Shown here: positions 16,711 to 43,147 of the stretch, one piece after another | Numbering within the stretch: the first letter of the stretch is position 1 | Layout of the letters: each line of letters opens with the position of its first letter | IMG/VR virus record: IMGVR_UViG_2684622541_000016 | Source: a virus | Lineage: Duplodnaviria > Heunggongvirae > Uroviricota > Caudoviricetes | Direction: 5' to 3' (one strand) | Length of the DNA: 44,699 nucleotides | Made by a program: the position numbers and the translations under genes | Notes under the pieces: generated by a model | What the model saw: only the letters and a program-made list of their open reading frames with translations | Databases searched by the model: none | Told to the model about the DNA's origin: nothing

Positions 16711-18097
16711 TGATTTCCATCAGCATTACACTCTGATTTTTTAATTCATCGATCACTTCCTCTGGACGGGAATCCTGATCGATAAATTTCAACGCCTGCA
16801 ACACCCGAACCGCATCAATCTGACGTATATCACCGCCCTGACGCAATGACTGAACAGCCAGCGCGGAGGATGAGTCAAACACCTGGGCAGATACATCCAG
16901 TTCAGTGCGCACATCCACATTGCCACCGCAACTCTCTCCGATCCATTCCGCCATTATCTGGAGAATATTATCGAGGGCATCTTCGAGGGAGTTCGCCATT
17001 GTATAAAGCGGCGAGTTTTCCTGCATTCGCTCTTCATTAGTCTGATCAACAGATTTGGTGGATGTATTTTCAGCACGCAGAAGTTTAGCGCCGGCATGAC
17101 GCATCTGATTTTCCAGCTTCTCAAGTGATGTTTCGCCAGATTCTATCGCTGCGCCACTATGTTCAACATATTCGAGGCCATTTTTTGTTCTGTCCTCAAA
17201 AATCGTAGCGGTGGATGCACCAACCGTCAGTTCTTCATTCCTGTCCAGCCCGTAGGCCACCAGCAATGGAACGCGGGCAACATGAAGAATATTGTCCTGC
17301 TCGCTCTGGCTTTGCCAGTGCTTGATATTCAGCAAGCCAAGATTAAGCAATGGCGGTGTACCACGCATAAATCCTGTTTTCTTCGTGTACAGTGTTACCA
17401 GAGGAATATCATCACGGCTGGTATTCCATGACTCATGAAGCGTCCAGACAGATTCGCCATTAGTGCCTTCGCTACGTCGATAAATTTCAACTCGACGGGG
17501 CATAATATGGCGGATCTGCTCCACCTTCTTCTGCCCGAAATCATCACCATCAATAATGATGACCTCTTTTATACGCAAATCAGTGAGAACAACTTTCCCT
17601 TTTTCAACTTTCGATTTCCATCCAATAACCTGGCGTGGATTCAGCATCGTAACGTACGGACGACCACCGGTCGCGTTTTCATCGGCTTTTGTCCGAATCT
17701 CTTTCATATCCGTTCGTGGATAGTCCACCAGCGCATGTGCCACACCATACTGAAATGCGAGGCTGAAAAATTGCTGCGCCCACACATCCAGTCGGCTCCC
17801 CTCCATGTCGATATTTTCTGCATATTCCCTGATTTTTGCCGGCGTTTCCTCACTCAATACTGTCGGCTCTGCAAATATGCGCCCAATATTTTGCTTGATG
17901 CTTTCTTCATACACAGGAAGTAGCGTAGCCACAGACAGGCGTTTTTTATAAGCGTCTTCATCTTCGTTAGGCCATTTTGGGAGATAATTTTCCCCCTGCC
18001 TGCGCATTTCAAGCGTACCGCCCATCAGTGCGTCGTTAATATCCCACGCCTCCAGCATATCGTTATAGTCGAGGTTGGGTGTTGATATATCAGCCAT
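16691..18097 (-). CDS. Portal protein
   Basis: 468 aa ORF immediately downstream of the large terminase gene. Confidence 0.8.
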   Translation of the reverse strand: MADISTPNLDYNDMLEAWDINDALMGGTLEMRRQGENYLPKWPNEDEDAYKKRLSVATLLPVYEESIKQNIGRIFAEPTVLSEETPAKIREYAENIDMEGSRLDVWAQQFFSLAFQYGVAHALVDYPRTDMKEIRTKADENATGGRPYVTMLNPRQVIGWKSKVEKGKVVLTDLRIKEVIIIDGDDFGQKKVEQIRHIMPRRVEIYRRSEGTNGESVWTLHESWNTSRDDIPLVTLYTKKTGFMRGTPPLLNLGLLNIKHWQSQSEQDNILHVARVPLLVAYGLDRNEELTVGASTATIFEDRTKNGLEYVEHSGAAIESGETSLEKLENQMRHAGAKLLRAENTSTKSVDQTNEERMQENSPLYTMANSLEDALDNILQIMAEWIGESCGGNVDVRTELDVSAQVFDSSSALAVQSLRQGGDIRQIDAVRVLQALKFIDQDSRPEEVIDELKNQSVMLMEINDANRE

Positions 18098-21617: not shown

Positions 21618-22380
21618 GCATGATCTCCACCATGCGCTGCGTCATTCGGACAAATCCATTTTCAATAGCCTGCTGATAATCAATGATCACCAGCGCCGAC
21701 TCCTCGAAAAGGCACTGAATTTCAGCGGGGGCATGAGCGTAATAGTCCGCAATTCTGCTGAAATTAAACACCGTGTGACGTTCTGCTGCACACAGGAGGA
21801 ATTTCTCAATATCAGGATCAAGGGACGCCGAACGTATCCGGCTGATCAGCTCCTGAGTTTTCGTATCGTCGTACAGTTCACTGATATCCGGTTTACCGCC
21901 TGACGGCTCATAAACAGGCGTATCAATTTTCGTCGTATACGGCTCCTCCTCATTTCCTGTACCGGGCAAAACATCCGTCAACAGTTCATCAATTTCTGCC
22001 GGGATGAAGCCTGTCAGGGAGACATCAAAATCAGCATTGATTAGGTCCGACAGCTCCATCCGCAACAGATCTTCATCCCAGCCAGCATTCATCGGCAGGC
22101 GATTATCTGCCAGGCGGTACGCCTTTTTCTGCTCATCCGTCAGGCCAGACAGAACAATGACCGGAACAGAATCCATTTTGAGCATTTCAGCCGCCATAAC
22201 ACGACCGTGACCCGCAATAATTTCGCCCTTTTCGTCAATCAGCACCGGATTAGTCCAGCCGAATTGCTTAATACTTTCTACCAGTTGTGCCACCTGCTCA
22301 GTACTGTGCGTCCTGGCGTTGTGCGCATACGGTGACAATTCTTGTAATGGGCGATAGACTATCTTTAATTTCTCGCTCAT
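21592..22380 (-). CDS. ParB-like nuclease domain (ParB/Srx fold) protein
   Basis: 262 aa ORF; N-terminus ...YRPLQELSPYAHNARTHSTEQVAQLVESIKQFGWTNPVLIDEKGEIIAGHGRVMAA... fits the ParB N-terminal domain pattern (GHGR motif). Confidence 0.75.
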   Translation of the reverse strand: MSEKLKIVYRPLQELSPYAHNARTHSTEQVAQLVESIKQFGWTNPVLIDEKGEIIAGHGRVMAAEMLKMDSVPVIVLSGLTDEQKKAYRLADNRLPMNAGWDEDLLRMELSDLINADFDVSLTGFIPAEIDELLTDVLPGTGNEEEPYTTKIDTPVYEPSGGKPDISELYDDTKTQELISRIRSASLDPDIEKFLLCAAERHTVFNFSRIADYYAHAPAEIQCLFEESALVIIDYQQAIENGFVRMTQRMVEIMHGGEEEYA

Positions 22381-22394
22381 ACAGCCTTGCTTTA

Positions 22395-22431
22395 TGAATA
22401 AAACGCACCCCAGCAGCCAGTGCTACTGGGG
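22395..22431 (-). terminator. Intrinsic terminator downstream of trkG
   Basis: Stem ccccag / ctgggg (22408-22413 and 22426-22431); the minus-strand T-rich tract corresponds to plus 22395-22403. Confidence 0.4.
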
Positions 22432-22517
22432 GCGGAGGTGTTGCTGGTAAAGTTAGGTATTGGATCAATGAGTGAGTCAACATAATATTAAACTCACAAT
22501 TATAAATCAGCCATATA

Positions 22518-23975
22518 TTAGGAGCGCCAAAAAAAACCTGAAAACAATATAATAACAGGATAAATTTCAAGGCGACCAAGAATCATAGCTATGCACATTA
22601 AATATTTTGCAATGTCATTAAGCACTCCGAATGACGATGCAGTAGCCCCAAAACCTAATCCCATATTATTAATACATGCAGCCACTGTTGCAAATGATGT
22701 AAGAAAATCATATCCCATACCATTTAACACCAGTATAAAAAACACCGTGAAGAGAGTATAAAGAAAAAAGAAACTCCATACAGACCTCATTACACGATCT
22801 GTAACTATCTTCCCTCCTACATTTACACTCAACAACGCTCTGGGATGAGAAAGCTGATTTATCTCGTGTTTGCTTTGTTTGAAAAGTATAAGAAATCGAA
22901 GTGACTTAATTCCACCACAGGTTGAACCTATACATCCCCCAAAGAAACTTGACAACAGCAAAAACACTATCGTGTGCGTGGGCCAGTTTGCATAATCCTG
23001 CGTAGCTAAACCATTATCAGTGAGCATGGAGCTGGCAAGAAAAAACGAATGAATAAAACTTCCATGCAAGTCATACATACCTATATGCCAGACCTGGAAA
23101 GAGGTAACAATGATCACCCCTAAGGCTATTAACAGAAAGAAACGAAGTTCAATATCTCTGATTAAAGGTTTTATCGTTTTTCTGCTAATAACAATATACC
23201 AAAGAGTGAAGTTGAAAGCCGATAGCAGGGAAAAAGAACCAGCCACCAGCTCAACCAAATAGTTATTAAAATATCCGATACTCTCGCTATGAGTTGAGAA
23301 ACCACCAAGCGAAACTGTGGAAATCCCGTGACAAATAGCATCAAACAAAGGCATTCCTGCAAGTCTATAACAGACAATACAAGCAATACCTAATAAAGAA
23401 TAAGTTATCCACAGTGTCCGTGACGTATCGGCCAGGCGGGGAGTGAGTTTGTCATCCTTAAATGGCCCCGGCATTTCTGACTGATAAAGCTTTGCACCAC
23501 CAATACCCAATAATGGCAATACTGCAACCGCCAGAACAATAACTCCTAAACCACCTATAAAATTTAACTGTGACCGATAGTACAAATATGCCCGAGGTAA
23601 TGAACTAACATCATCAATTACAGTTGCTCCTGTTGTTGTTATTCCAGAAACCCCTTCAAACAGAGCATCAATGAACGTTAAATTAAGTTCTGAGTCAATC
23701 CATAAAGGGAATGCACTAATAACAGAAAACAAAATCCAAAACATTACAATTATAATAAACCCATCACGGGTACGTAATTGAATGCCAGATTTCTTAGTTG
23801 TATACCACGCTCCGCCACCAATGCAAAAAAATATAACGAAAGTTATAAAGAAAACGAACAGGCTTTTTTCTTTATAAAACAATGCTACAACCATTGGTGG
23901 CAACATTGAAAGACTATAGAGCCAAACCAGGAACCCACACATATGAGTAACAACTCTTACATGAGATGTATTCAT
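22518..23975 (-). CDS. trkG: Trk-system potassium uptake protein TrkG (TrkH/KtrB family)
   Basis: Polytopic membrane protein with repeated glycine-containing selectivity-filter-like motifs (GITTTG, GGLG, GGFS, GLGF); 485 aa from MNTSHV; AT-rich; the Rac prophage of K-12 carries trkG at this position. Confidence 0.9.
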   Translation of the reverse strand: MNTSHVRVVTHMCGFLVWLYSLSMLPPMVVALFYKEKSLFVFFITFVIFFCIGGGAWYTTKKSGIQLRTRDGFIIIVMFWILFSVISAFPLWIDSELNLTFIDALFEGVSGITTTGATVIDDVSSLPRAYLYYRSQLNFIGGLGVIVLAVAVLPLLGIGGAKLYQSEMPGPFKDDKLTPRLADTSRTLWITYSLLGIACIVCYRLAGMPLFDAICHGISTVSLGGFSTHSESIGYFNNYLVELVAGSFSLLSAFNFTLWYIVISRKTIKPLIRDIELRFFLLIALGVIIVTSFQVWHIGMYDLHGSFIHSFFLASSMLTDNGLATQDYANWPTHTIVFLLLSSFFGGCIGSTCGGIKSLRFLILFKQSKHEINQLSHPRALLSVNVGGKIVTDRVMRSVWSFFFLYTLFTVFFILVLNGMGYDFLTSFATVAACINNMGLGFGATASSFGVLNDIAKYLMCIAMILGRLEIYPVIILFSGFFWRS

Positions 23976-24112
23976 ATCTAAATATTCTTTCAATTATAAC
24001 CACCTTGCTGCAATATTATGATTATACTGTATAAAATTTAACTCCTCTTAGATCTTACTTCACTGTTCCTTATGAAACAATCATCAAAATGAATCATATT
24101 GTAGTTAAGATT

Positions 24113-24589
24113 TTACTTTAAACACTGCTCGGTTATGTATTGCTGAGCACCTTCAAGTTGGGCCTGCATCATTACCAGTCGTTCCCGGAGGGTGAAATAA
24201 TCCCGTTCAGCGGTGTCTGCCAGTCGGGGGGAGGCTGCATTATCCACGCCGGAGGCGGTGGTGGCTTCACGCACTGACTGACAGACTGCTTTGATGTGCA
24301 ACCGACGACGACCAGCGGCAACATCATCACGCAGAGCATCATTTTCAGCTTTCGCATCAGCTAACTCCTTCGTGTATTTTGCATCGAGCGCAGCAACATC
24401 ACGCTGACGCATCTGCATGTCAGTAATTGCCGCGTTCGCCAGCTTCAGTTCTCTGGCATTTTTGTCGCGCTGGGCTTTGTAGGTAATGGCGTTATCACGG
24501 TAATGATTAACAGCCCATGACAGGCAGACGATGATGCAGATAACCAGAGCGGAGATAATCGCGGTTACTCTGTTCATTGCTGACCCCAC
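24113..24589 (-). CDS. i-spanin Rz
   Basis: 158 aa ORF with N-terminal transmembrane segment and coiled-coil periplasmic domain; follows the endolysin gene with overlap. Confidence 0.85.
24172..24357 (-). CDS. o-spanin Rz1 lipoprotein, embedded in Rz in the +1 frame
   Basis: 61 aa [26 protein letters not shown]... with lipobox VVGC and proline-rich mature region (PPPPPAW...PPPDW). Confidence 0.8.
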
Positions 24590-25077
24590 AAACAGATTTC
24601 ACGCTCAATCTCACGACGAGTCATGAGACCTTTCCATTGCTTACCGCCAGCATATGTCCAGCGACGTAGCTGATCACATGCGCCTTTGATATCGCCCTGG
24701 TTTATTTTGCGAAGAAGCGTCGATNNNNNNNNNNNNNNNNNNNNNNNNNNNNNNNNNNNNNNNNNNNNNNNNNNNNNNNNNNNNNNNNNNNNNNNNNNNN
24801 NNNNNNNNNNNNNNNNNNNNNNNNNNNNNNNNNNNNNNNNNNNNNNNNNNNNNNNNNNNNNNNNNNNNNNNNNNNNNNNNNNNNNNNNNNNNNNNNNNNN
24901 NNNNNNNNNNNNNNNNNNNNNNNNNNNNNNNNNNNNNNNNNNNNNNNNNNNNNNNNNNNNNNNNNNNNNNNNNTCCAGACCATCGTTACCACTTGGGCCA
25001 GTGATTAACACTGATGCTATAGCAATTGCTCCGCCACCAATAGCAGCAGCAACGACTTTTCGTAATGATGGAGGCAT
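24574..25077 (-). CDS. SAR endolysin (lysozyme, phage 21 R type); interrupted by a 249-nt N run
   Basis: N-terminus [34 protein letters not shown] is a signal-anchor-release-like segment; the C-terminus resembles the lysozyme family; start overlaps the holin stop (ATGA). Confidence 0.75.
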
Positions 25078-25292
25078 TATTCACCTCTCGCAGCCTTGCG
25101 CTTATCTTCTTTAATCTTGAAATAAAGGTTTGTCAGGTACGTCAGCAGGCCAAATACCAGACTACCCAGCACACCGATTGCAGCCCACTGTGACGGAGTT
25201 ACTCTATCGAGCAACTGTAAAAACCAGTAGCCAGCACTGCCTGCGGAGGTGCCGTAGGCAATGCCTGTTGAAATTTTGTCCATGGATTTCAT
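25077..25292 (-). CDS. Pinholin S (phage 21 S21 type), dual-start holin/antiholin
   Basis: [31 protein letters not shown]...[13 protein letters not shown], 71 aa, matches S21 as recalled; GGAGG ribosome binding site before the start; dual-start motif M-K-S-M. Confidence 0.85.
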
Positions 25293-25543
25293 AGCCTCAC
25301 CTCCGCACGGAACGGATGGCATAGTTATTATGTGTAGGCTTTCAGACACATCAATCAGAGCCTTAATTGATATATATGCTGGAGACGATGCAATATAAAA
25401 AGCTCGCCGTAGCGAGCTAATAAAATGTATTTCTCTGATATTATGTTTATTTGTATTAGCTCAGACTTGACATCACAGGTTTCGTATATAGAACATCATC
25501 AAATCTGTCAGTTTGCTATGAATGAGATATAGTAATTGAAGAG

Positions 25544-25939
25544 CTAACCTCGCATGTCAAAGCCAGATTTCTGAAAATCTCTGTAGACTTCCGGATTGTT
25601 GAAGGCCGGAAATTTGGCTTTATGAGCTGCGGACTTTATCGCTTCGCAATAGGCTTTATCACCGTTACTGGTAGATATTTTTAACGCCGTGCCATCCTGA
25701 GAGAATTCCATATGCAACCTGCATTTTTTCCCTTTCCAGTTATGCGGCTCATCAAGTTTGGCATTAATTGCAGCTCTGATTCCCCGCGCTTGCGCCCCCC
25801 ATTCATCCTGATCATCCCAGCGTCCTGAACTGCAACTACCTGTAGCAGTAGTTTTGTGGCAATCTGAAGGGTGTAAAGGTGTGCATCCCGCAACAAAACC
25901 GACCCAAAAAGTCAACATAACGATTTTCTTTAATCCCAC
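25544..25939 (-). CDS. Lipoprotein with TolA C-terminal domain (domain III)-like fold
   Basis: GTG start with GAGGAG ribosome binding site; signal peptide plus lipobox VAGC; C-terminal ...KGKKCRLHMEFSQDGTALKISTSNGDKAYCEAIKSAAHKAKFPAFNNPEVYRDFQKSGF... parallels the TolA domain III pattern and is a paralogue of the next gene. Confidence 0.6.
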   Translation of the reverse strand: MGLKKIVMLTFWVGFVAGCTPLHPSDCHKTTATGSCSSGRWDDQDEWGAQARGIRAAINAKLDEPHNWKGKKCRLHMEFSQDGTALKISTSNGDKAYCEAIKSAAHKAKFPAFNNPEVYRDFQKSGFDMRG

Positions 25940-26089
25940 TTCTTGCTCCTCAATCCATTAAAATCTCAGCAATAGTAGTTGTTACGTCCGCCACTGGCTC
26001 AGAGCTGACTATCCGCTAAATTTAGCTCAGTGCCGTAGCTGTGTCAGAACAAACCTAAGCCGAAACCGTTTATTACAAAACAATAAATA

Positions 26090-26518: not shown

Positions 26519-27107
26519 TTTTCCTCACATATGTCATATAGTAAAGGATTATATATACCGTTGTTTTGGACGCTCAAACAGCGAATCAGATCAAATAAAA
26601 CGCACATTTGTTAACATTTACACAAAGTCTGCGTGGGATATTCTGAAAGAATATCCATAATGTGGAGAGAATCTATTGAAGTGCATGGTGCCGGGTGCCT
26701 CCCGGTGAACAAAATGTTCGTGATACCTGTCGGCGACAGAAAAGGTTAATGGTATCACCCCACCGCACAGGGGGATTCACCATGCAGGAGTTTTCTTAGC
26801 AAACTCACTGCGCGCCCGGCAACTCCCAACCACATAAAATGCGGAGTTTGTGGCATTTATGCATATAACTCGCAGGAATTATCTTAAAAAACTGATGTCG
26901 ATCCGGATTAAAAAGAAGCAGGTCATCATCAGATGACTGGAAAAAAGGAAAACAAAAAATACTCATCATACAGTTTTGATTGCAGGGATGAGCCTGCTAT
27001 GCACAATATGCAGAATATAAGCAAGATAAAAATATGCAGGCATATTATTTCGGATCTTGTTATTAACACAACCTTTTTAATAATCATTTGGCATACAATA
27101 AACCAGC

Positions 27108-27135: not shown

Positions 27136-27455
27136 GGTCAATACAAAGGATGCTTCGTCTTTATTATAGTAATCTGAGGCGTCGGGTGTCTTGTATCAGA
27201 CAACATATTGTCCCGCTAAACAGCGAATTACAAACCACCCTGCAATGATCTCTCATCTCATTTTATATGAGTTGACGACATCAGGATAACGCATCATCAG
27301 CCCCTGCCAAGAAATATCAAAACTCCCGCCAGCAATGTGTTATCACAATATTGTAAAAAAAACACAGCACCGAAACTATAACTGGTCTCTGTTATAATTT
27401 GGAGCAGAAAGACCAGTTGCCCAACTAGCAGCATTCTCCCCTGCTTTCCTGACGT

Positions 27456-27562: not shown

Positions 27563-28105
27563 TCAAGCCATTTTCTCAGCAAATGATTCACGCATGGGAA
27601 TATATAGGGCATACTCAGCAACAGCTAACCAATTAGCAATCCGTTTTTCGCATGTGCTAAAACACCACTCTGGGTGTGCATCATTTAGCAATTCAGCCAT
27701 TTTGCGCTTAGTCATCCCCCGCCCTTCATAGCGTTGCCGGAGAATGCAAATCAATCCTGGATGCTCTGCCAGCACCTCACTTATGACTCGATCAATACAT
27801 AACGCCTCTGCATCAGTACAATGCGCCAGCCAGCTCTTTTGCTTGCCGTTGATCATCTCTCGCAAAAACGCTTCCAGCTCAGCTTTCTCTATTCCCGCTT
27901 TTTTCATTCTGCGCAGGGCTTCATTAATGGCTGTTTTCGTCAGTTTTTTGGATGCCAACAACTGATTGAACATATTCCCTGACCTGCCACCGCCAATATA
28001 CGACCAGCGCCCCCACATACGTAGTTTTCCCTGAATCCAGACACTTTCCAGCGTGGTGAGGCGAAGGTGTTCTCCGCTTTTTCCTGTATTCGTTGGGTAA
28101 ATCAT
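27563..28105 (-). CDS. Putative late-gene antiterminator (Q-like), assigned mainly by position
   Basis: 180 aa ORF immediately upstream of the terminator hairpins and lysis cassette, downstream of nin-like genes; overlaps the previous gene by 4 nt. Family not recognised with certainty. Confidence 0.45.
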   Translation of the reverse strand: MIYPTNTGKSGEHLRLTTLESVWIQGKLRMWGRWSYIGGGRSGNMFNQLLASKKLTKTAINEALRRMKKAGIEKAELEAFLREMINGKQKSWLAHCTDAEALCIDRVISEVLAEHPGLICILRQRYEGRGMTKRKMAELLNDAHPEWCFSTCEKRIANWLAVAEYALYIPMRESFAEKMA

Positions 28106-28392
28106 AAATGACCTTTCTTTCTCCAGATTTCTTGTGTGCGAAAAACCCCTTCAGCATGCATCAGGCGCAATTCTTCTTTGGTGTAATCGCTGGTTTTTAC
28201 CCGCCCGTCGATTAGATCGTGGCATGAGCTACAGGCTATCGCCGCCTGCATATCATGTGGTTTTGTCGCTGTTCCGCACGTCCCCGCCAGCCTGTAATGC
28301 GCCAGCACAGAGGTTTCGGGATTGTGATTGCAGTAGCCAGGGATTCTGATCTGGCACATCTGGCCTTTAGCCGCTTTACGTAAATTCACCAT
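28102..28392 (-). CDS. YbcO-like nin-region protein (DUF1364-like, Cys-rich putative nuclease)
   Basis: 96 aa ORF with several Cys (C-x6-C...C-x2-C); same size and position as ybcO of prophage DLP12 (from memory). Confidence 0.55.
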   Translation of the reverse strand: MVNLRKAAKGQMCQIRIPGYCNHNPETSVLAHYRLAGTCGTATKPHDMQAAIACSSCHDLIDGRVKTSDYTKEELRLMHAEGVFRTQEIWRKKGHL

Positions 28393-28991
28393 TACGCAAA
28401 CTCCAGTAGTTGTGCGGCCACATTTTCAACTTCCTCCTGAGAGGAGAATTTACGGAACAGAATCCAGTTCCACAGCACATTCAGTACAGATTTATAAACC
28501 TGCTGAAACTCGACTTCGTCCATATTCGCAAAAGCGATGGATTTTGCCCGACGCCCACGGCTACCGTCCGGATAAATATGCTCGGTGTAAAATCCGGCCT
28601 GAATGGTTACCCACTCGCGGAAAGCCTCAAACGACTTTAGCAACGCCGTATCCCGGGTTCTACGAGTCGCAACGGTGTTAAGGTATTGCTCTGCGGCATC
28701 ACTCAGGGCTGGCGTGTGTTCCCGACCAACTGATTCGCACAGGTAATCAACGAAACCAGACAGCAGTTCTCGTTCGCGAGGCGTGATCGCCCCACCGACC
28801 GGAGTCCAGTAATCGAATCCCAGTTGCAGGAGTTTGAAAAAACGCTTGTGGAATGCGTAGTTACGCACACGCTTAAAGTCTGCGTGTATCCACTCACCTA
28901 TTTTGATTTGATGCAGAAAATCGCAACTCTCCGGCGTCGCCGGGAGAAGTAAACCAGAAGAGGTTTGTTTGACCAGTTGTATATGCGCCAT
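28392..28991 (-). CDS. YbcN-like nin-region protein (DUF1367-like)
   Basis: 199 aa ORF translationally coupled to the ybcO-like gene (ATGA overlap); assignment from recollection only. Confidence 0.5.
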   Translation of the reverse strand: MAHIQLVKQTSSGLLLPATPESCDFLHQIKIGEWIHADFKRVRNYAFHKRFFKLLQLGFDYWTPVGGAITPRERELLSGFVDYLCESVGREHTPALSDAAEQYLNTVATRRTRDTALLKSFEAFREWVTIQAGFYTEHIYPDGSRGRRAKSIAFANMDEVEFQQVYKSVLNVLWNWILFRKFSSQEEVENVAAQLLEFA

Positions 28992-29271
28992 TTCTCAATC
29001 TCTCGATGGCGCAGCGCAGCAGATGCCAGTTGTTCAGGCTGACGAATAAAGTATAAATAAACTGGCTATGGTGTAAAGCCCCACATAGCATGAACAAACA
29101 CTACATATCAAATAGCTGGTACAAGGATAGAAATACGACACTTATTATTAAAAACGATTAGATAAATTACATTTTAATGTTATGCAAAAGTTCTTTTTTA
29201 TCATAACATTTCAATAAAAGCATTACAGATGCAATCATCCCGTCATCATCAATTATTTAAGGTGGTTAAAC

Positions 29272-29358
29272 ATGGAAAATAACAAGTTCGCACATCTCGC
29301 TCCTTTTTTATCCGTAATCCTTTTCGCTTGTTGTTTTATATGGGCATTATTTTTATAA
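29272..29358 (+). CDS. Small hydrophobic peptide (28 aa), type I toxin-like
   Basis: AAGGTGG ribosome binding site 6 nt before ATG; MENNKFAHLAPFLSVILFACCFIWALFL has a polar N-terminus and one transmembrane-like helix; lies in AT-rich DNA; not in the ORF track (under 60 aa). Confidence 0.3.
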   Translation: MENNKFAHLAPFLSVILFACCFIWALFL

Positions 29359-29766
29359 AGTAGCCACATGATAAGTTGCTGGAATCATATTTCCCACTCA
29401 AGTCATTAACATTTGATAAGATATATCTAAAAGGACGCCTTTACATTATTTATGCGTATATAATTTATTTATATACACAGTAAAGGTATCCTGGGAAAAT
29501 ATTTATCGTTAAAAAATACATCATAAATAATTAAGCTGAAATTTCAGAACACAACTAATACACACAATAAGGTTCAGTAACAGTAATCTATGTGGACTAC
29601 ATCGAGATTTTTTGATTAAACTTTAATAACTTATTCCTAACACACAGAATGCATAAACTAAAAGTAAAACAAATAGTTATACGAAAAACAACCATATTTA
29701 TTCTATCTTCTCCTCTAATCAACATATCAATTATGTGTTTCATAACAGCTTGACATAACCCTCCAA

Positions 29767-29789
29767 AAGATGCATTTTTAATGCATGTT
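29767..29789 (+). promoter_or_regulatory. NsrR-type operator (11-1-11 inverted repeat) upstream of the yeaR-like gene
   Basis: AAGATGCATTT t TAATGCATGTT: the left half equals the NsrR half-site as recalled (AAGATGCATTT) and the right half matches its complement at 9 of 11 positions; 16 nt upstream of the start codon. Confidence 0.5.
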
Positions 29790-29804
29790 TTGGAGGAGGT
29801 GGTT

Positions 29805-30143
29805 ATGACACACAAGAGAATTCCTAAAGATTGGGTAATCAAACGCTCAACTCCGTTCTTCACAAAAGAGAACGTACCTTCAGCGTTATTAACACATCAT
29901 AATACAGCAGCAGGTGTTTTTGGGCAGTTGTGCGTAATGGAAGGCACTGTAACATATTATGGTTTTACTGATGAGAATGCTACTGAACCGGAGATAAAAG
30001 TAGTCATTAATGCTGGCGCTTTTGCAACAAGCCCACCACAATACTGGCACCGTGTTGAACTAAGCGATGATGCTCAGTTTAATATTAACTTTTGGGTCGC
30101 TCCAGACTTTTCGGGCGAAAAAGTCTATAGCACCAAAAAATAG
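29805..30143 (+). CDS. YeaR-like DUF1971 protein
   Basis: GGAGGAGG ribosome binding site before ATG at 29805; product MTHKRIPKDWVIKRSTPFFTKENVPSALLTHHNTAAGVFGQL...FNINFWVAPD resembles E. coli YeaR (about 119 aa) as recalled. Confidence 0.65.
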   Translation: MTHKRIPKDWVIKRSTPFFTKENVPSALLTHHNTAAGVFGQLCVMEGTVTYYGFTDENATEPEIKVVINAGAFATSPPQYWHRVELSDDAQFNINFWVAPDFSGEKVYSTKK

Positions 30144-30172
30144 ATGATCATATTAAAAATGCTTTAACAGTC

Positions 30173-30209
30173 AGACCCGGCAGGGCTATCCCCGACGGGT
30201 CTCATTTTT
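30173..30209 (+). terminator. Intrinsic terminator after the yeaR-like gene
   Basis: Stem agacccg / cgggtct followed by caTTTTTg. Confidence 0.5.
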
Positions 30210-30361
30210 GTAAATATATTGGTTCTACATTGACAGGAGACTTCAACCATAAGAAGTAATCTGAATACTTGAGCAATAAATTTACTTAAGATTAATGAGC
30301 GCACCTTGCCGGACAAAGATAAACCAAGGTAACACCTTTTTTCTAGCCAGTATGTAATCAA

Positions 30362-30580
30362 TCAGAAAGCCGCTCCATAAGAACAACAGCAAGACAATAA
30401 ATTGCCATTACAGCCGCAATAGCCAGCGCACATTTGAGAACCAGCACGACAACCCCCTGTATTAGACGCACACCAGTCCTGATAAATATGAGGCTGTCTC
30501 GTCAGTGATTCAATACAACTATTGGGTATAGTTTCTGTGATTTTATTCTGTAGAAATGGAACACAACAACCAGTCACCAC
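30362..30580 (-). CDS. Cys-rich small hypothetical protein (about 72 aa)
   Basis: GTG start 6 nt after AAGGAA; 14 Cys including CC and CCC clusters (...CAGYCGCNGNLLSCCCSYGAAF); could be spurious. Confidence 0.25.
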   Translation of the reverse strand: MVTGCCVPFLQNKITETIPNSCIESLTRQPHIYQDWCASNTGGCRAGSQMCAGYCGCNGNLLSCCCSYGAAF

Positions 30581-30763
30581 CAGCACTTCCTTAAATGCTC
30601 TAAGTCAGAAACAAGCCAACATTTTAGTCCGCTTTGAGCGATCTGCAGACATTGCTAGCAGCCTTCTGTGTGAATTCTCAGGGAGCAGGTCGGCATAGCA
30701 TCACGTTGAGGCTCTTACCCTACTTGTTCACACCAACCCTAACTCCACAGACTGATTCATAAA

Positions 30764-31765
30764 TTAGTAATCTGCGTGTTTCGCACTTTTCAGAAATGCT
30801 TTCATATTTTCATTAGGTCGCTCAATTTCGAAGTTACTTCCATATAACTCTTGTAATTTTGGCCATAACTTACTTAATAACCCTCTCCTGCGATAAAATG
30901 GATGTATCCAAACGGTAGATAGGTACGGAGAATTTGCATTTGAATTGTTTATTGTGACCAGCCCAACTAAACATTGTCGATAACCACTATTATCCATTGA
31001 TTGTATTTCTTCGACGAATGGATACGCGATTACATCAGTCCAACCATGATCGGTTGTATCCCATTGCATTCCGTCATGACATTCCTTCGACTGATAGCGG
31101 CGTAAAGCTACACACGCGAGCTTTTGCCAATCTGGAGAATTAATTGTGATCTCTTCATCGTATGACGCGCCTATTGGAGCGGGTATTGGTCTGATTAATC
31201 CAGCATGGCATTCATCATAGAACTTCATGTTTCCCTCAGAAACGTTGTGTACGTTGGGTTGCTCCATGTGTGCGCCATTCAAAAATAGCTCTGATAGTAG
31301 TGTATCTACACTGTAATCTTTATTGATTATTGTCGGCTTAGAGTTTTTCTTATTAAGGCCGCGAGTAACGATTTTTTGATCAATGTTAACAACATGGAAT
31401 AATCCGTCGGGGAGGCTAGCGAACCACGATGGGGCATCGGACCAGAATAGCATGCCTTTTGTACTTCTTAAGAGTTTAATTAAGTTAATACAAGCTTCTT
31501 CACTAGTCTTGCCGTTGATGCGAAGTATGTTAGGACTAAAGTAATATTCATCCATATCAGGGAATGCAGCTTCGCAAAACTCCTGTACATAATTTAGCAC
31601 CTGGATTCTACAGAGATCATCATAGCTGGTAATAACTAAGGGGGTATCTTCATTACTATTATGATTATCAATAATGCAATCTATAGCGAGACTTACTGCT
31701 TTGCGTATCACTTCAGTTGAATCTAACGACTCTAAAAATTTTGTCTTTCGTGTGCGAATATCCAT
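30764..31765 (-). CDS. Hypothetical protein with GNAT acetyltransferase-like C-terminal motif
   Basis: 333 aa ORF in AT-rich DNA, 15 nt downstream of the HEPN-like gene; C-terminus ...CLVGLVTINNSNANSPYLSTVWIHPFYRRRGLLSKLWPKL fits GNAT motif A ([VI]-x-P-x-x-R-x-x-G). Confidence 0.55.
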   Translation of the reverse strand: MDIRTRKTKFLESLDSTEVIRKAVSLAIDCIIDNHNSNEDTPLVITSYDDLCRIQVLNYVQEFCEAAFPDMDEYYFSPNILRINGKTSEEACINLIKLLRSTKGMLFWSDAPSWFASLPDGLFHVVNIDQKIVTRGLNKKNSKPTIINKDYSVDTLLSELFLNGAHMEQPNVHNVSEGNMKFYDECHAGLIRPIPAPIGASYDEEITINSPDWQKLACVALRRYQSKECHDGMQWDTTDHGWTDVIAYPFVEEIQSMDNSGYRQCLVGLVTINNSNANSPYLSTVWIHPFYRRRGLLSKLWPKLQELYGSNFEIERPNENMKAFLKSAKHADY

Positions 31766-31780
31766 GTATGACCTGCGCTA

Positions 31781-32803
31781 TTAAAATTCATGAATGAACG
31801 GTTTGTCATCTGGTTGCAAAATGGTGGTTTTATTCGTTGCTACATTTAAACTGTTGTAGAGCATAATTGCCAGGTTCGATGCATTTTCAATCAGCGTTTC
31901 AAGATCCTGGTCTGTAATCACTACGAGGTTCCCTTCTTTATCCTTTCCACCACGATGCACTAAGTGATTTCGATTGAGGGTTGCCAATTCAATAGCTTCT
32001 ATCGGACAGTCTTTTTGTACTTTTATATCGAATGTAGCTTCATAGCGGTCGATTACCTTTTTAGTGCTATGCCAGCTTGCACTGATCAAGTGTTCCTTGA
32101 TTGACCTGATTAGCTCTCCCCTAATTTTCTCGATGGGTTCACCCTTGAAAGGCAACGCAGCAATATCTTTGCTTACTTTAAATTCAGTCTTACCTTTTTC
32201 TATACAATTGGCTATGTAGACATCATCTTTCTCTATAGAATTAATGAATAGCTCAACATAAAGCGTTTCCAAAGCTGTAATAACATTCGTGTAGAGCAAA
32301 CTAAGCAAGTGGTTTTTTTGCTGTTGTTCAGTTTTATCTTTTGCAAGTTTTTTTATTTTATCGATATTATCAATGAATTTTAAATACGGATTACCGGAAG
32401 ACGTTACAGCGTCGTAGATATCATCATCGTACCAATCATCTATATTATTTGAGTTTCCAGACCAGTCAAAACATTGTGTTTGTAATTCATCTACTAATTC
32501 CTCAATATACTCAGATTTAACATATTGACCGAAGATGGATTGTAGTTCTTCGCTCGCATCATACGGCCCGCCATATATGTAAGCATAGCCACCTTCTCTA
32601 CTTTCATACGGACAAGCATTTGCCGGATCTTCAAAGTTTTCAAAGAACCAGTTTTTCATTACTTCGAGTTGATCTTTTTTGCTTATGTATTTTAAAGATT
32701 TTAGTGGAACTTTCTTTCCATTAACCTCGAAAACAATTTTCACGATGTAACGCTCCCTTGTATCAATTGCGCAACTATTATACCACAGCGAAATACAGGG
32801 CAT
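31781..32803 (-). CDS. Hypothetical protein with C-terminal HEPN-like R-x4-H motif
   Basis: ORF 31781-32872; start placed at ATG 32803 (GGAGG 6 nt upstream), alternative GTG at 32743 (AGGGAG upstream, extended -10 TGGTATAAT at 32777-32787); ...ATLNRNHLVHRGG... carries R-x4-H near the C-terminus; AT-rich codon usage. Confidence 0.55.
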   Translation of the reverse strand: MPCISLWYNSCAIDTRERYIVKIVFEVNGKKVPLKSLKYISKKDQLEVMKNWFFENFEDPANACPYESREGGYAYIYGGPYDASEELQSIFGQYVKSEYIEELVDELQTQCFDWSGNSNNIDDWYDDDIYDAVTSSGNPYLKFIDNIDKIKKLAKDKTEQQQKNHLLSLLYTNVITALETLYVELFINSIEKDDVYIANCIEKGKTEFKVSKDIAALPFKGEPIEKIRGELIRSIKEHLISASWHSTKKVIDRYEATFDIKVQKDCPIEAIELATLNRNHLVHRGGKDKEGNLVVITDQDLETLIENASNLAIMLYNSLNVATNKTTILQPDDKPFIHEF

Positions 32804-32941
32804 AACCTGCCTCCTTAAACTAACATACCATGAGCCAGCAATGTCCGCTATTGGCACAAAGCGGACAACCACGCTAGCTCTCCCCTGTGCCAGAAAAATG
32901 TCAATTTACATATGAACTAATGCTCTTTGATCTAGTAACGT

Positions 32942-33358
32942 CTATAAATACCGAAGATTTCCTTGATAAAATGCCAGTACACGTTTCATAACTTCACTCT
33001 TCCGGCACTCGCGACAGATTATGTTCTGACGCCTGTCATAGCGGCGTATTTCTCCGTCTGGTAATGACCAGATAAGGTCAGGATCAACCACAACCGTTTT
33101 TTTCACCTTTGCCCTGGATAGTTTTTTGCGGGCGTTTTTCCAATCCTTACGAGCCTGTTCAGACGGGAATAACCCATAGCCAGAGTTGTATACATCGCCA
33201 CTGGCAACCAACTCTCTGGCAAGAATGCTCATCAGATATCTTGTCGCACCTGTCTTGGCCTCCAGTTGCCTTAACGTCTCGCGCCCACTCTGGCGTACCA
33301 ACTCAACAACCTGCTCCTTAATTTTTTCACGCTCTTCCTGTGTAAAAACTTTTGCCAT
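32942..33358 (-). CDS. Hypothetical phage protein
   Basis: Start MAKVFTQEE at 33358 with GGAGG ribosome binding site; basic, helical-looking 138 aa protein; follows the gene ending at 33374. Confidence 0.5.
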   Translation of the reverse strand: MAKVFTQEEREKIKEQVVELVRQSGRETLRQLEAKTGATRYLMSILARELVASGDVYNSGYGLFPSEQARKDWKNARKKLSRAKVKKTVVVDPDLIWSLPDGEIRRYDRRQNIICRECRKSEVMKRVLAFYQGNLRYL

Positions 33359-33373
33359 AAGCGCCTCCGGCAA

Positions 33374-34135
33374 TCACTTTTCCGACACAATACGACTGGA
33401 GGAATCGACAATCTGTCGGACAATATCCCGGTGCTTGTTCAGCTCCCGCAGCGCGGCGCAGACTCGCTCCCACTTCTGGACATGATTTTTCGCCCGACGC
33501 AGTTCGCGGTTTGCCATATGCAGCGATGGTAAAACTAGGTCATCCGCTTGCGTTTCAGTAAACGATGGCAGCGACTGCACAATGTCCGCCACAGTTTCTG
33601 TTTTAATATCTTCCTGTGTTGCCGCTTCCTGTACTGGTAACGCAACACCGGCTGGCTGAGGAAAGGCTTTACCATCAGTTTCCGCTACCGATGCAGCTTT
33701 CGGCTCTGCTGGTAAATTATCGCCCGGCATGCAGTAACGAAATTTACTGTTCTGGTTTACGCGAATCAGGCGTCCTTTGCTGATTGCCATTGCCAGCGTT
33801 GAAGCAACTTTGCGGGATGTTGTACCGAACAGCGTAGCCAGTTCATCCGCCGTTTGTGGTCCGCGTTGTTCAATCGTCGCGGTTAAATCGCACTCTGAGA
33901 TTTTCACTACAGTTGCCGTGGTGGTTTCTTCCGGCAGTTCTGCCTGCATTGGCTGTTCCTGCTGAACGTTGTTATCAGCCACACGCCAGGTGTACGCGCT
34001 TTTATCAACGAAACCAGCTTTTTTCAGTTCCCATAGTTCGTTCAGCACTTCTTCACGACTGATATCAAGTCGCGCAGCAAGTTCTATGGATGTGGCTTTT
34101 CCCATTGCTTTCAGTGCGTCAAAAACAGTCTCCAT
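33374..34135 (-). CDS. Hypothetical protein with N-terminal winged-helix-like domain
   Basis: Start [43 protein letters not shown] at 34135 with GGGAGG ribosome binding site; HTH-like N-terminus and acidic low-complexity centre; just downstream of ydaV. Confidence 0.5.
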
Positions 34136-34157
34136 AAAAATTTCCTCCCGGTAAAAA

Positions 34158-34904
34158 TTACTTCTCAATTCCTGGCTGGACGACATTCGGACGCCAGCTC
34201 TCCCAGTTAAAATTCACCCATCGCCCGCCGTTCATGGTCATGCGATCCATAATCCGCTCGCCGAGCAATGTTTTCATGGCCTCATAGTTCAGGTTTGTCA
34301 GCATCCCCACGCTGCGCATCGACGCTGTCCGGCGATCAACAATCTGGTGCAGCACCACCTGCTCGTTTTTCGTCTCGCGCTGAATGCCAATTTCATCAAG
34401 AACCAGCAGATCCACTTCGCATAGTTCCCGCAAAAATTTTTCGCCTGACTGCCCATCGTCATAGCTGGCGTGCAGGGCACTCATAACATCAGCCACGGTA
34501 ACCACAATCACTGTCTGACCGTCTTTCAGCAGGCGATTCCCGATAGCTGCCGCTAAGTGGTTCTTCCCGGTACCAGGTTTTCCGCTGAACGCAAAATTTG
34601 TACACCCGGTCATCAGTTCATCAGCGATGGATTTCGCCTGACTCAACGCGTATCGCTGCGCTTCGTTCTGCACCTGGTAATTCGAAAACGAGCATTTGCG
34701 GTGCAATGGCTGGATGCCAGAGCGATTCAGAATTTTTTCCACCCGCAACTGACGATTCTGACGGTTGATCTCCTCACAACGTTTCTGGCCTTCGGAAAGT
34801 TGCCACTCGCGCCACTCCGCTACCGTCTTGAATGGCGCGGTTACATGTGACGGGGCCAGTCTGCGGATACGTTCAAGAACGTCGCCTGTCGCAATATTTT
34901 TCAT
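34158..34904 (-). CDS. ydaV: DnaC-like replication protein (IstB-like AAA+ ATPase)
   Basis: 248 aa; Walker [16 protein letters not shown] and Walker [10 protein letters not shown]; same length as K-12 Rac YdaV. Confidence 0.85.
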
Positions 34905-34910
34905 GGTCAG

Positions 34911-35768
34911 TTACCCCCTGAAGCCTGGCGGGATCGCACTATCCGGTAACGAGACGGTGTTAACCTGTCGGAGTAACGTCTCAGGTCGAACACCTTTCGG
35001 CGCGAACAAGCCCTGGTATTCATTGGCGATGCTGTGTCGAATCACCTGCTCAGGTGAAAAACCCTGCTGGCGGAATTTTTCCAGCTCCCGTATCGCCCCG
35101 TTAGCGCCCTGCTCCGTTCGAATCGGTTTTCGCAATGCCTGGCGAAATTCAACCCACTCACGCCAAAGCGAGACAGAAATCCAGTTCGGCAAAGCAATAT
35201 CCAGAGGGTCAAACTTTTTGACACCTCGATTCCCCCGGGGGGGATTTAGGGGGGGATCTGTTTTTAGATCTTTATCTGTATCTTTATTAGTTGCCTTTGT
35301 GTTGACATCATGTTCAAACACCACTTCAACATCTGTTTGAACACCTGTTAAATTTCTCTCTTGTTTTGTTTGAACATCTGCTTCCTTTCTGCTTCTTCTG
35401 GCCTGAACAGATGCTTTTCCTGCGGCTGATTTTTTGGTTAATTTTTCCCTGACTGATGCCAGATCTTCCTCAATCCGAAGATGCACCCATTCCTCGCCGT
35501 TATCGCAAAAAAACTCCTGCAAGGATGGTTCAACATCAGCCCATCGCTCGTTAGTCAGACGGGCAATTTTTGCCAGCCTGTTTTTAGGTATTGGCTTTCC
35601 TGTTTGCCAGTAATTGAACATCAGCAACAAATACGCACCATGCTCCTCTGCTGACAAATGCATGGTGTCAGCCAGGTAATCAGCTATGTACAGTTGCATG
35701 TATGGTAATGCGGCCATAATTGCCCCGTATGATGCTGCCCGGTGGCTTAGAATAAGCACAAACAGCAT
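34911..35768 (-). CDS. ydaU: Replication initiation (O-like) protein YdaU
   Basis: 285 aa ORF, the length of K-12 Rac YdaU; upstream of the dnaC-like gene; contains iteron-like repeats internally. Confidence 0.75.
   Translation of the reverse strand: MLFVLILSHRAASYGAIMAALPYMQLYIADYLADTMHLSAEEHGAYLLLMFNYWQTGKPIPKNRLAKIARLTNERWADVEPSLQEFFCDNGEEWVHLRIEEDLASVREKLTKKSAAGKASVQARRSRKEADVQTKQERNLTGVQTDVEVVFEHDVNTKATNKDTDKDLKTDPPLNPPRGNRGVKKFDPLDIALPNWISVSLWREWVEFRQALRKPIRTEQGANGAIRELEKFRQQGFSPEQVIRHSIANEYQGLFAPKGVRPETLLRQVNTVSLPDSAIPPGFRG
35312..35377. repeat. Iteron-like 10-bp repeats (TGTTCAAACA and its complement TGTTTGAACA), candidate replication origin
   Basis: tgttcaaaca at 35312-35321; tgtttgaaca at 35335-35344 and 35368-35377; adjacent G7 tracts and agatct...agatct at 35236-35275. 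Confidence 0.4.
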
Positions 35769-42958: not shown

Positions 42959-43147
42959 ATGTATAAAATTACCGCCACTATTGAAAAGGAAGGTGGCACT
43001 CCTACTAACTGGACAAGATATTCAAAATCTAAACTAACGAAATCAGAATGCGAAAAAATGCTCTCAGGTAAAAAAGAAGCAGGCGTTTCCAGAGAGCAGA
43101 AAGTAAAACTGATAAATTTTAATTGCGAGAAACTTCAGTCCTCGTGA
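42959..43147 (+). CDS. Small hypothetical protein (YdaC-like by position)
   Basis: GGAGG ribosome binding site; MYKITATIEKEGGTPTNWTRYSKSKLTKSECEKMLSGKK..., 62 aa. Confidence 0.45.
   Translation: MYKITATIEKEGGTPTNWTRYSKSKLTKSECEKMLSGKKEAGVSREQKVKLINFNCEKLQSS

Follow-up and report, generated by a model that had tools for sequence, protein, structure and literature searches.

Two classes of 27-nt hairpin arm mark the ends of a 2240-bp cassette in an AT-rich accessory island of a Rac-type lambdoid prophage of Escherichia coli, and the same arms bracket at least 42 different cassettes, one of them 99.7% identical between a lambdoid and a P2-like phage. The island spans positions 28992 to 32941 of the window, by which we mean the whole 44,699-nt stretch of Caudoviricetes DNA analysed here (IMG/VR record IMGVR_UViG_2684622541_000016). 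Taken together, the data make it probable that this island is a Rac-type slot holding four separately inherited units (U1 to U4), that the last of them is a defence cassette encoding a HEPN protein and a GNAT-like protein, and that the arms serve as crossover sites. Under the mechanism we propose, the class A and class B arms delimiting the cassette would be the places where cassettes replace one another. The entry and exit of defence genes at prophage hotspots is an open question, and here the swap points are visible at single-base resolution. The locus goes beyond an ordinary hotspot by its putative HEPN counterpart of the anti-phage protein aRES, its stand-alone GNAT-fold candidate (both outside PADLOC), its two very short open reading frames (micro-ORFs) and, above all, its arms, which link the cargo slots of lambdoid, P2-like and P4-like elements.

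Hairpin arms at the cassette ends and across phages

The island and its cassette contain the following features, given with coordinates of the window and strand.

28992-32941, no strand: AT-rich accessory island, from the start of irsA (DUF1367) to the stop of lygF (DUF977), GC content 0.376
30627-32866, minus: cassette of 2240 bp, with A arm, its own putative promoter, HEPN gene, GNAT-like gene and B arm
30627-30653, plus: class B hairpin arm GTCCGCTTTGAGCGATCTGCAGACATT, an exact motif match; the imperfect inverted repeat reaches 30659
30764-31765, minus: GNAT-like protein of 333 aa (phrog_16994), with an N-terminal alpha/beta domain (~190 aa, assigned to no family) and a C-terminal GNAT fold
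31781-32743, minus: HEPN protein of 320 aa (phrog_17908), with a putative HEPN/RES N-terminal domain 1 and a putative RiboL-PSP-type HEPN domain
32777-32785, minus: putative extended -10 element TGgTATAAT inside the cassette, ~35 nt upstream of the GTG start at 32743, read by eye
32840-32866, minus: class A hairpin arm GTCCGCTTTGTGCCAATAGCGGACATT; the imperfect inverted repeat reaches 32834

Both mosaic boundaries of U4 coincide exactly with an imperfect 46-nt inverted repeat whose terminal 10 nt are perfect. On the transcribed strand, the cassette begins with GTCCGCTTTGTGCCAATAGCGGACATTGCTGGC (from 32866 downwards) and finishes with GCTAGCAATGTCTGCAGATCGCTCAAAGCGGAC (down to 30627). Identical ends recur within unrelated flanks in at least four contexts, including Serratia grimesii (locus L004, 30627-32866, 97% identity), a viral contig (L111, 30627-32867, 99.9%) and loci L118 and L119. 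In L120 and L121, the cassette ends and both arms are kept and exactly the HEPN ORF is absent. The same arms also enclose the FRG and DUF5677 cargos of this slot. Folded as DNA, the A arm gives a hairpin of -9.3 kcal/mol (z -3.5). Because the arm tips are where identical cassettes stop when they occur in different elements, we infer that the arms are the crossover sites.

The arm motif GYCYGCTNNGWGCSANNNRCRGACATT matches twice in the window and not once in 100 shuffles of it; the consensus reads GTCYGCT..G[T/A]GC[C/G]A...GCRGACATT. Arms are present in at least 120 stretches of the viral collection, against about 0.4 expected by chance according to our own estimate. A census over 137 loci (1.38 Mb, allowing up to three mismatches) returned 241 arms and none in shuffles, with 118 arms falling into class A (GTGCCA core) and 112 into class B (GAGCGA core). 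The pairing of the two classes is strict. Inward-facing pairs (n = 72) combine an A with a B arm in 66 cases and never two arms of one class, the other six having one unclassed arm. Neighbouring cassettes are joined in the order B arm, 15-18 nt spacer, A arm, as seen at 20 junctions, and in every outer-flank family with at least two classed members, all classed arms belong to a single class, either A or B. At the tandem junctions (L120 7757-7828, L004 8138-8209, L224 8894-8963 and others), the spacer often starts with CTTNAGC and often finishes near GTGAT(C/A); three single-cassette junctions likewise have TGATC(A) immediately outside the A arm.

The 72 cassettes fall into 42 clusters of 0.55-4.3 kb; their GC contents are 0.33-0.48, and they contain, in either orientation, one to five ORFs of 70 codons or more. 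Their cargo includes DarT/DarG (two cassettes), PD-T7-1, PD-T7-5, PD-T4-3 and several PADLOC candidate (PDC) systems, as well as a Pycsar-type TIR protein, ApeA_NTD1, DUF4238, FRG, SMEK and DUF5677; TerC, LysR, CdiI and FlxA represent non-defence cargo. The arms can thereby serve as search sequences for cargo slots and for new candidate defence genes, the two genes of the window included.

The slots themselves are shared between phage types. Arms are found between lygF and the 29-codon ORF or hokD in lambdoid phages, and between the tail-fibre-assembly gene G and the sheath gene FI of P2-like phages, which is the fun(Z) hotspot; further slots lie on the lambda-P, PerC/DnaT, umuDC and P4 alpha sides. 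In phage P2 (AF063097, L251), fun(Z) is enclosed by an A arm (15335-15361) and a degenerate B arm (17429-17455). The former stands just after gene G and the latter just before the pF promoter; tin and old are without flanking arms. The foreign low-GC genes of the P2 variable region are reportedly the subject of a 2004 study by Nilsson, whose title invokes site-specific recombination; that study may already describe the arm repeats. To our knowledge, the lambdoid, P4-like and chromosomal occurrences, the A and B classes and the defence cargo are not part of it. A lambdoid slot and a P2 slot share one cassette of 1032 bp at 99.7% identity, and its homology stops no more than 1 nt from the arm tips. 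Both slot types also contain the FRG cassette. A search for the arm sequences in full-text literature found only unrelated primer matches.

Two well-known genomes contain more degenerate examples. In the Qin prophage of K-12 MG1655 (L097, 4982-5996), flxA lies between an A arm, which is within the annotated ydfV ORF, and a degenerate B-type arm with three mismatches; this cassette is inverted relative to hokD when compared with the other loci. Phage lambda (J02459, L250) has a lone B-like arm with three mismatches at 27319-27345 (minus strand), at the end of the b region and about 400 nt from attP, for which no partner arm was found.

The HEPN and GNAT-like proteins

The 320-aa protein displays the all-alpha HEPN fold and an Rx4H motif, R258-N-H-L-V-H263, of which R258 and H263 are invariant in 27 homologues down to 27% identity. 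The N-terminal 100 residues of the same homologues share an invariant WFxxNFEDP...PYxSxEGGY...GGPY pattern, which corresponds to the PF18870 region. PF18870 matches 22 of the 27 at E <= 1e-3 and PF18735 (RiboL-PSP-HEPN) matches seven, with a best E of 8.2e-9; precomputed database matches exist for many homologues. The start at 32743 was preferred because homologues of other genera begin with MK(I/V)VF and because the GTG at 32872 is just outside the A-arm tip at 32866. Longer versions of 363 codons (GTG 32872) and 340 codons (ATG 32803) were considered and not preferred. The extended -10 element upstream of this start is largely conserved in the Serratia and Aeromonas copies (TGGTACAAT / TGATACAAT).

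Probably the same N-terminal domain is found in aRES, a stand-alone abortive anti-phage protein whose RES domain depletes NAD+ and brings about growth arrest (Osterman et al., bioRxiv 10.64898/2026.01.28.702374). Members of aRES were selected by an hhsearch hit to PF18870 plus a second Pfam domain, printed there as PF00808 (bioRxiv 10.64898/2026.01.28.702374). Both aRES and the present protein are stand-alone two-domain proteins of about 300 aa with an N-terminal domain that is PF18870 in aRES and probably so here, reside in defence islands or mobile elements and have no operon partner. They differ in the C-terminal half, where the HEPN protein has an Rx4H HEPN domain instead of the NAD+-degrading RES domain. 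As its C-terminal domain is HEPN and RES is absent, we do not count the protein as a member of aRES. By analogy, it most likely works as aRES does, with RNA as the predicted substrate, and we predict that the sensor domain of aRES can control not only a RES NADase but also a HEPN RNase. The literature searched contained no experiment on a HEPN version of this architecture. HepS of the Salmonella prophage Gifsy-1 offers a second precedent for action by a single gene, being a stand-alone HEPN anticodon nuclease that is triggered by a tail-tip protein (PMC13043305). Neither HepS nor Tha of Staphylococcus aureus prophages (PMC11087260) has detectable sequence kinship with the present protein beyond the HEPN fold, and HepS lacks the PF18870 N-terminal domain.

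When the N-terminal 100 aa alone served as query in a word-indexed homology search, all matches were gene fragments and none revealed an alternative effector; an exhaustive HMMER search returned 1406 representatives, mostly of ~280-320 aa. The genomic neighbours of the HEPN family are heterogeneous and rich in mobile-element and defence genes (integrases, AbiJ, SIR2, methylase, ArdA). No conserved partner was found among 136 neighbouring ORFs. The pair is also distinct from HEPN-MNT systems: the neighbour is a GNAT-fold protein, and no MNT domain is among the 25 most frequent of the 95 neighbour Pfam families. One 3.3-kb contig (L003, JAIHTM010000277.1, 'MAG: Collinsella sp.') encodes an identical HEPN protein and has ~97% DNA identity to 30343-33368, a stretch common to many E. 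coli genomes; its actinobacterial label most likely reflects mis-binning or contamination.

The 333-aa protein adopts a GNAT fold in its C-terminal part, with a PF00583 score of 19.9 bits against a cut-off of 20.7. Its gene occurs alone in Shewanella, in Marinomonas beside Abi_2, in a metagenomic defence island between a BrxC/D-like ATPase with helicase and the Mrr and HEPN_Toprim genes, in a Serratia integrative and conjugative element (ICE) beside ParE/PaaA2, and in a P4-like satellite after the alpha primase. E. coli, Serratia grimesii and a mobilisable element of Aeromonas caviae have the HEPN and GNAT-like genes as a pair, with a constant spacing of 15 nt. Population frequencies, here and below, come from searches of 5426 complete E. 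coli genomes, of which 205 have the two-gene cargo complete; otherwise, the match is limited to ~90 nt beside lygF. The Aeromonas caviae pair (L092-L094) resides in a relaxase-bearing element beside SIR2 and cREC_REC genes, probably as part of a small defence cluster. In these loci, homology to the window ends inside the cassette (30722-32802) and no arms were detected.

We propose that the N-terminal domain would restrain the HEPN nuclease until a cue of infection is perceived, whereupon RNA, either tRNA or mRNA, would be cleaved by the Rx4H site and growth of the infected cell would stop. The GNAT-like protein may transfer an acetyl group to a component of translation or of the phage, and both genes would act as stand-alone anti-phage genes of the abortive-infection type, expressed from the prophage. 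We read the pair as two linked single-gene modules.

Several findings weigh against this assignment. The HEPN protein itself scores 22.2 bits with PF18870 (E 1.9e-4), below the cut-off of 27.4, and has no PF18735 match. In the GNAT-like protein, the acetyl-CoA loop RRRGLL (RRxGxL) has an invariant R292, and its glycine varies among homologues. No PADLOC-DB 2.0.0 model matches either protein, the HEPN protein giving only noise at E >= 0.01, and neither large protein receives a name from NCBIfam or PADLOC. Finally, the E. coli pair is always found together with its 15-nt spacing, which fits a two-gene system equally well.

Such a system would be obligate: either a toxin-antitoxin pair, in which the GNAT-like protein neutralises the HEPN RNase by modification in a manner comparable to AMPylation by MNT, or a sensor and its effector. 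The genes are co-oriented, 15 nt apart and under one putative promoter, the E. coli matches comprise the whole cargo or just the ~90 nt beside lygF, and pair and spacing are the same in Serratia grimesii and the Aeromonas caviae element. We nevertheless regard an obligate system as unlikely. No GNAT-like homologue accompanies 77 of 80 HEPN-family loci from many phyla, including relatives at 75-76% identity, and only the three closest have this partner. The GNAT-like gene is solitary in Shewanella, Marinomonas, the Serratia ICE and the metagenomic island, the L120/L121 cassette has both arms and the GNAT gene and is missing exactly the HEPN ORF, and the characterised analogues aRES and HepS act alone. 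Truncated copies are also present in viral contigs, with only the 3' part of the HEPN gene in L108 (3518-3982) and the GNAT gene from residue 133 in L125, pointing to decay of the cassette in some prophages.

Proposed exchange of cassettes at the arms

Each slot has fixed arms, no empty slot was found and the smallest slot content, a 264-nt remnant, still has both arms present. This pattern fits replacement by double crossover at the arms better than insertion and excision. The crossovers could be performed by a dedicated site-specific activity, or by the single-strand-annealing recombinases of phages (RecET/Red), which would use the arms as short homologies. Precision to 1 nt with arms of 27 nt, strict A/B pairing, the fixed spacer length and the spread to unrelated elements point toward a dedicated activity. 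The arms fixed at the slot, the lack of empty sites, the 57 extra nt of an FRG copy described below and weak covariation point toward recombineering by annealing proteins, and Rac has recE.

Taken further, the A and B arms might be the recognition and crossover sites of an integron-like 'plug-and-play' exchange system for defence genes, with the HEPN protein as the RNase counterpart of aRES and the representative of a new family of stand-alone abortive-infection proteins. We offer this tentatively and give it somewhat less than an even chance. Such a system would link Rac/Qin- and lambda-type lambdoid phages, P2-like phages, P4-like satellites and chromosomal islands. As in integrons, promoter-poor cassettes of one to a few genes stand in tandem with an imperfect palindrome between them, and the B arm, 15-18 nt and A arm (~70 nt) can fold as a long mismatched hairpin resembling attC. 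The differences from integrons are considerable. The arms are without GTTRRRY/RYYYAAC core sites and each is a hairpin on its own, cassettes have their own promoters and stand in either orientation, and two of three junctions fold poorly. No IntI was identified beside the arrays; two cargo proteins match PF00589, and the scanned flank ORFs are tail, replication and umuDC genes.

Other palindromic repeats bear some resemblance to the arms. The repetitive extragenic palindromic (REP) units and bacterial interspersed mosaic elements (BIME) of E. coli combine two types of short palindrome that alternate in orientation and are joined by linkers of constant length, and the PeSL 'mobile regulatory cassettes' of T4-type phages are stem-loops that flank variable ORFs and mediate gene shuffling. 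The arms differ from both in sequence, are tied to the cargo slots of temperate phages and are not known to be associated with a RAYT-type transposase or an early promoter.

A number of observations weigh against the arms as dedicated crossover sites. For one FRG copy (L149), the sequence shared with the lambdoid copy runs 57 nt past the A arm. A chimeric flank query found no empty slot in the 5426 genomes, a search of five cassette junctions found no target-site duplication, and no recombinase was found associated with the arms. Covariation of the inner stem is weak: for the pair 9-16, the counts were 48/2000 and 99/2000 shuffles, and none of the remaining pairs is significant. The B arm folds poorly (z -1.2), and of three B-spacer-A junctions tested, only one folds into a long hairpin (L224, -24.3 kcal/mol, z -5.9). 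The motif was defined from few copies and then searched for, so that apparent conservation at the arm positions it specifies is in part circular. Enterobacterial prophages predominate in the viral collection, and many of the loci are near-duplicates.

Some of these observations are also what would be expected if the arms had no dedicated role in recombination. They could be hairpins for transcription or RNA stability, or old remnants of flanks, with cassettes swapped by general or 'relaxed' homologous recombination (RecA, RecET, Red). The single arm class per flank family and the missing empty site resemble double-crossover replacement, RecE is encoded by Rac itself, and both the 57 shared nt of the FRG copy and the weak structural covariation agree with this explanation. 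Rad52-like phage recombinases are reported to carry out relaxed homologous recombination between temperate phages and defective prophages (PMC3945230). We consider this explanation rather unlikely. The arms are just 27-33 nt long and imperfect, yet the lambdoid and P2-like break points lie within 1 nt of their outer tips; A and B are distinct in 66 of 72 pairs, with one arm unclassed in the other six; the tandem spacer is fixed at 15-18 nt; and the arms travel with the cassette into the Serratia chromosome and P4-like satellites, where the flanks are unrelated.

Transposition is a third explanation, with the cassette as a cargo-bearing, non-autonomous element like a miniature inverted-repeat transposable element (MITE), whose terminal inverted repeats are recognised by a transposase encoded elsewhere. 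The imperfect 33-nt terminal inverted repeats with 10 perfect terminal bases, the presence of the same element in several unrelated flanks and the TGATC(A) just outside the A arm in three contexts would all agree with it. We judge it very improbable, as five junction pairs are without target-site duplication and the cassette contains no transposase. Moreover, the arms stay constant at a slot when the cargo changes, the A arm is always on the same flank, no empty site is seen, the 264-nt remnant still has both arms and tandem cassettes keep a fixed spacing. Replacement by crossover at the A and B arms is the reading we favour.

The slot, its other units and the prophage

The slot between lygF/DUF977 and irsA/hokD varies in cargo among Rac/Qin-type prophages. 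Between these genes, other strains contain ietAS (a validated system, named iteA/iteS in RefSeq), NACHT, FRG, AIPR or DUF5677 proteins, SMEK with a methyltransferase, or KilA-N with a hypothetical gene. Phage Rac MN652886 has five small ORFs (HP1-5) with hok and rem, and K-12 Qin has relBE. As the cargo that varies here is mostly defensive, the slot is a prophage defence hotspot, and as such of a known kind, in agreement with the moron or defence hotspot proposed in an earlier sequence-only reading of the island. The hotspots known from P2 and P4 have in common with it a fixed position in a temperate phage and low-GC defence genes that are rapidly swapped, and the P2 G-FI (fun/Z) hotspot has the same A/B arms; they differ in that the present slot belongs to a Rac/Qin-type lambdoid prophage (lygF to hokD/irsA). 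The hotspot literature searched contained no description of this slot. A 2026 survey of P2/P4 hotspots finds transposable elements almost absent from P2/P4 elements, weighs them together with homologous and illegitimate recombination, and leaves the mechanism unresolved (PMC13586616). Text searches of recent defence-hotspot papers found no mention of flanking palindromes.

The island might alternatively consist of morons for host fitness, providing stress tolerance and membrane peptides, with the DUF1971 gene and small peptides described below under selection and the HEPN and GNAT-like genes as selfish addiction modules. The DUF1971 protein is indeed close to YeaR and to the structure of 'tellurite resistance protein B', the addiction modules hok and relBE occupy the same slot in other strains, and TerC, LysR, CdiI and FlxA are non-defence cargo between arms. 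Most identifiable cargo of the slot and of arm-bounded cassettes, on the other hand, consists of known or candidate anti-phage systems, and the HEPN family has the N-terminal domain of the experimentally validated aRES, which makes this alternative quite improbable. We thus continue to favour the reading of the island as a defence slot.

The sequence-only reading had also expected at least four independent cargo units in the island, and this is borne out by its structure. The island is a mosaic of four segments, each with its own population frequency, and all four occur together in only 13/5426 genomes, with different cargo elsewhere; the genes are accordingly not a conserved core. In some strains (NZ_CP084096, NZ_CP073936, NZ_CP182331), the island is split by IS2, ISSen4 or IS1B. 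The units other than the cassette hold the following features.

29272-29358, plus: 28-codon ORF MENNKFAHLAPFLSVILFACCFIWALFL, Shine-Dalgarno (SD) sequence TAAGGTG; single hydrophobic helix, predicted membrane peptide, travels with irsA
29361-29780, no strand: AT-rich, ORF-poor tract upstream of the DUF1971 gene, GC content 0.28
29805-30143, plus: DUF1971/YeaR/TehB-N-terminal-like protein, 112 aa, PF09313 E 2.6e-26, start according to PGAP
30173-30209, plus: intrinsic terminator after the DUF1971 gene, AGACCCG...CGGGTCT then CATTTTT, read by eye and not reported by the consensus scan
30343-30641, minus: U3, conserved unannotated element of 299 bp, left anchor of the variable slot
30358-30447, minus: 29-codon ORF VLVLKCALAIAAVMAIYCLAVVLMERLSD inside U3, GTG start, SD CAGGGGG/CAGGAGG, hydrophobic product

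U1 (28992-29360) is conserved along with irsA at 88-92% identity. Its 28-codon ORF keeps start, stop, length and SD sequence in six copies with flanks that are ~20% divergent. Substitutions in it are chiefly synonymous or conservative, and homology stops just past the stop codon. No annotated coding sequence is present at this position in the six RefSeq loci examined.

U2 (29361-30342) combines the AT-rich tract, the DUF1971 gene and the terminator in one moving unit that is found in 346/5426 genomes. The tract is presumably the promoter or regulatory region of the DUF1971 moron, whose gene is oriented opposite to the phage early operon. The protein passes the Pfam threshold (91.9 bits against a cut-off of 23.1), matches PDB entry 3dl3, 'tellurite resistance protein B', at E 3.5e-59 and YeaR (3bb6) at E 1.6e-24, and has no match in PADLOC-DB 2.0.0.

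U3 is present in 1718/5426 genomes, and no feature is annotated beneath the match among the matches listed. In other prophages, it lies immediately upstream of hokD, as aligned over four loci with different cargo; a hok remnant was looked for in the window and none was found. Four aligned copies of the 29-codon ORF differ by five synonymous and four conservative changes, which fits coding constraint. A 37-codon version was rejected, its upstream GTG being GTA in two of the four loci, as was an overlapping Cys-rich ORF of 74 codons (30362-30586), since a 2-nt indel breaks its frame in two loci. U1 and U3 each point to a micro-protein gene that is conserved yet unannotated, and one of the two occurs in roughly a third of the E. 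coli genomes.

The distinct composition described in the sequence-only reading was confirmed by a sliding-window calculation. The GC content is 0.378 for 29000-32900, compared with 0.49-0.50 for the flanks, and 0.376 for 28992-32941, compared with 0.491 (Q-ybcO-irsA) and 0.498 (lygF..ydaU). Over all 3.9-kb windows, the mean is 0.463 (sd 0.043), with the minimum of 0.374 at 29101, and 0.9% are as low as the island. Mixed gene orientation is equally evident, the DUF1971 gene being on the plus strand (29805-30143) and the two large genes on the minus strand (30764-31765, 31781-32743). Of three tracts taken as long and non-coding, 29360-29760 is indeed ORF-poor (GC 0.279). The tract 29000-29270 is without a credible ORF, yet it is conserved with irsA and precedes the conserved 28-codon ORF. 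The third, 30590-30760, does not fit the description: its GC content of 0.468 is not AT-rich, and it contains the B arm and the conserved leader of the 29-codon ORF.

Individual promoters and terminators had been assumed as well, and here a consensus scan found chance levels, with 12 promoter-like sites against 13.7 expected from shuffled sequence and three terminator-like sites against 3.2. Despite the scan, a good terminator after the DUF1971 gene and the extended -10 ahead of the HEPN gene are seen by eye. Among the properties of phage morons, the island displays distinct composition and dispensability, with the promoter and the DUF1971 terminator visible by eye only. That the tracts contain micro-ORFs, that the promoter and terminator signals are at chance level and that the cassette is bounded by hairpins had all been missed. 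Between 28900 and 33000, no Rfam family reaches its gathering threshold, the sole match being STnc150 at chance level (E 0.19). A tRNA scan found no tRNA.

The island lies within the early-right operon of the prophage, between the following genes; Pfam and the RefSeq annotation of an identical locus identify the two that form its edges.

27563-28105, minus: DUF1133/Q, early-right operon
28102-28392, minus: ybcO, early-right operon
28392-28991, minus: DUF1367/irsA, one edge of the island
32942-33373, minus: DUF977/lygF, replication-module gene, other edge of the island
33374-34186, minus: DUF1627/ydaW, early-right operon
34158-34904, minus: ydaV, early-right operon
34911-35768, minus: ydaU, early-right operon

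Positions 28400-33400 have a 100% identical copy in E. coli strain JP538, adjoining trkG and near annotated kilR, sieB, racC, recE and ydaS-T-U-V-W. In addition, the RalA antitoxin small RNA (sRNA) of the RalR/RalA type I toxin-antitoxin system is present at full length at 42965-43143 (minus strand, 225 bits, Rfam). From RalA and the JP538 locus with trkG and kilR/sieB/recE, it follows that the window is a Rac-type lambdoid prophage of E. coli and the island a variable accessory slot in its early-right operon.

The island is not the only AT-rich block in the window. Another, at ~22000-25600, has a GC content of 0.394 overall and of 0.34 in its lowest 1-kb windows. Judging from L001, genes with a TolA C-terminal domain form part of this block, located between Q and the lysis genes; it is probably a further moron region. 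An Rfam match to the STnc100 sRNA (26629-26815, minus strand, 86.6 bits, above the gathering score) lies downstream of Q in the same Q-to-lysis interval. A degenerate third arm-like sequence with three mismatches (GTCAGCTCTGAGCCAGTGGCGGACGTA, 25983-26009, minus strand) recurs in L098, L001 and L244; compared with L001, it lies between the Q and TolA-like genes and may mark another cargo slot in this interval.

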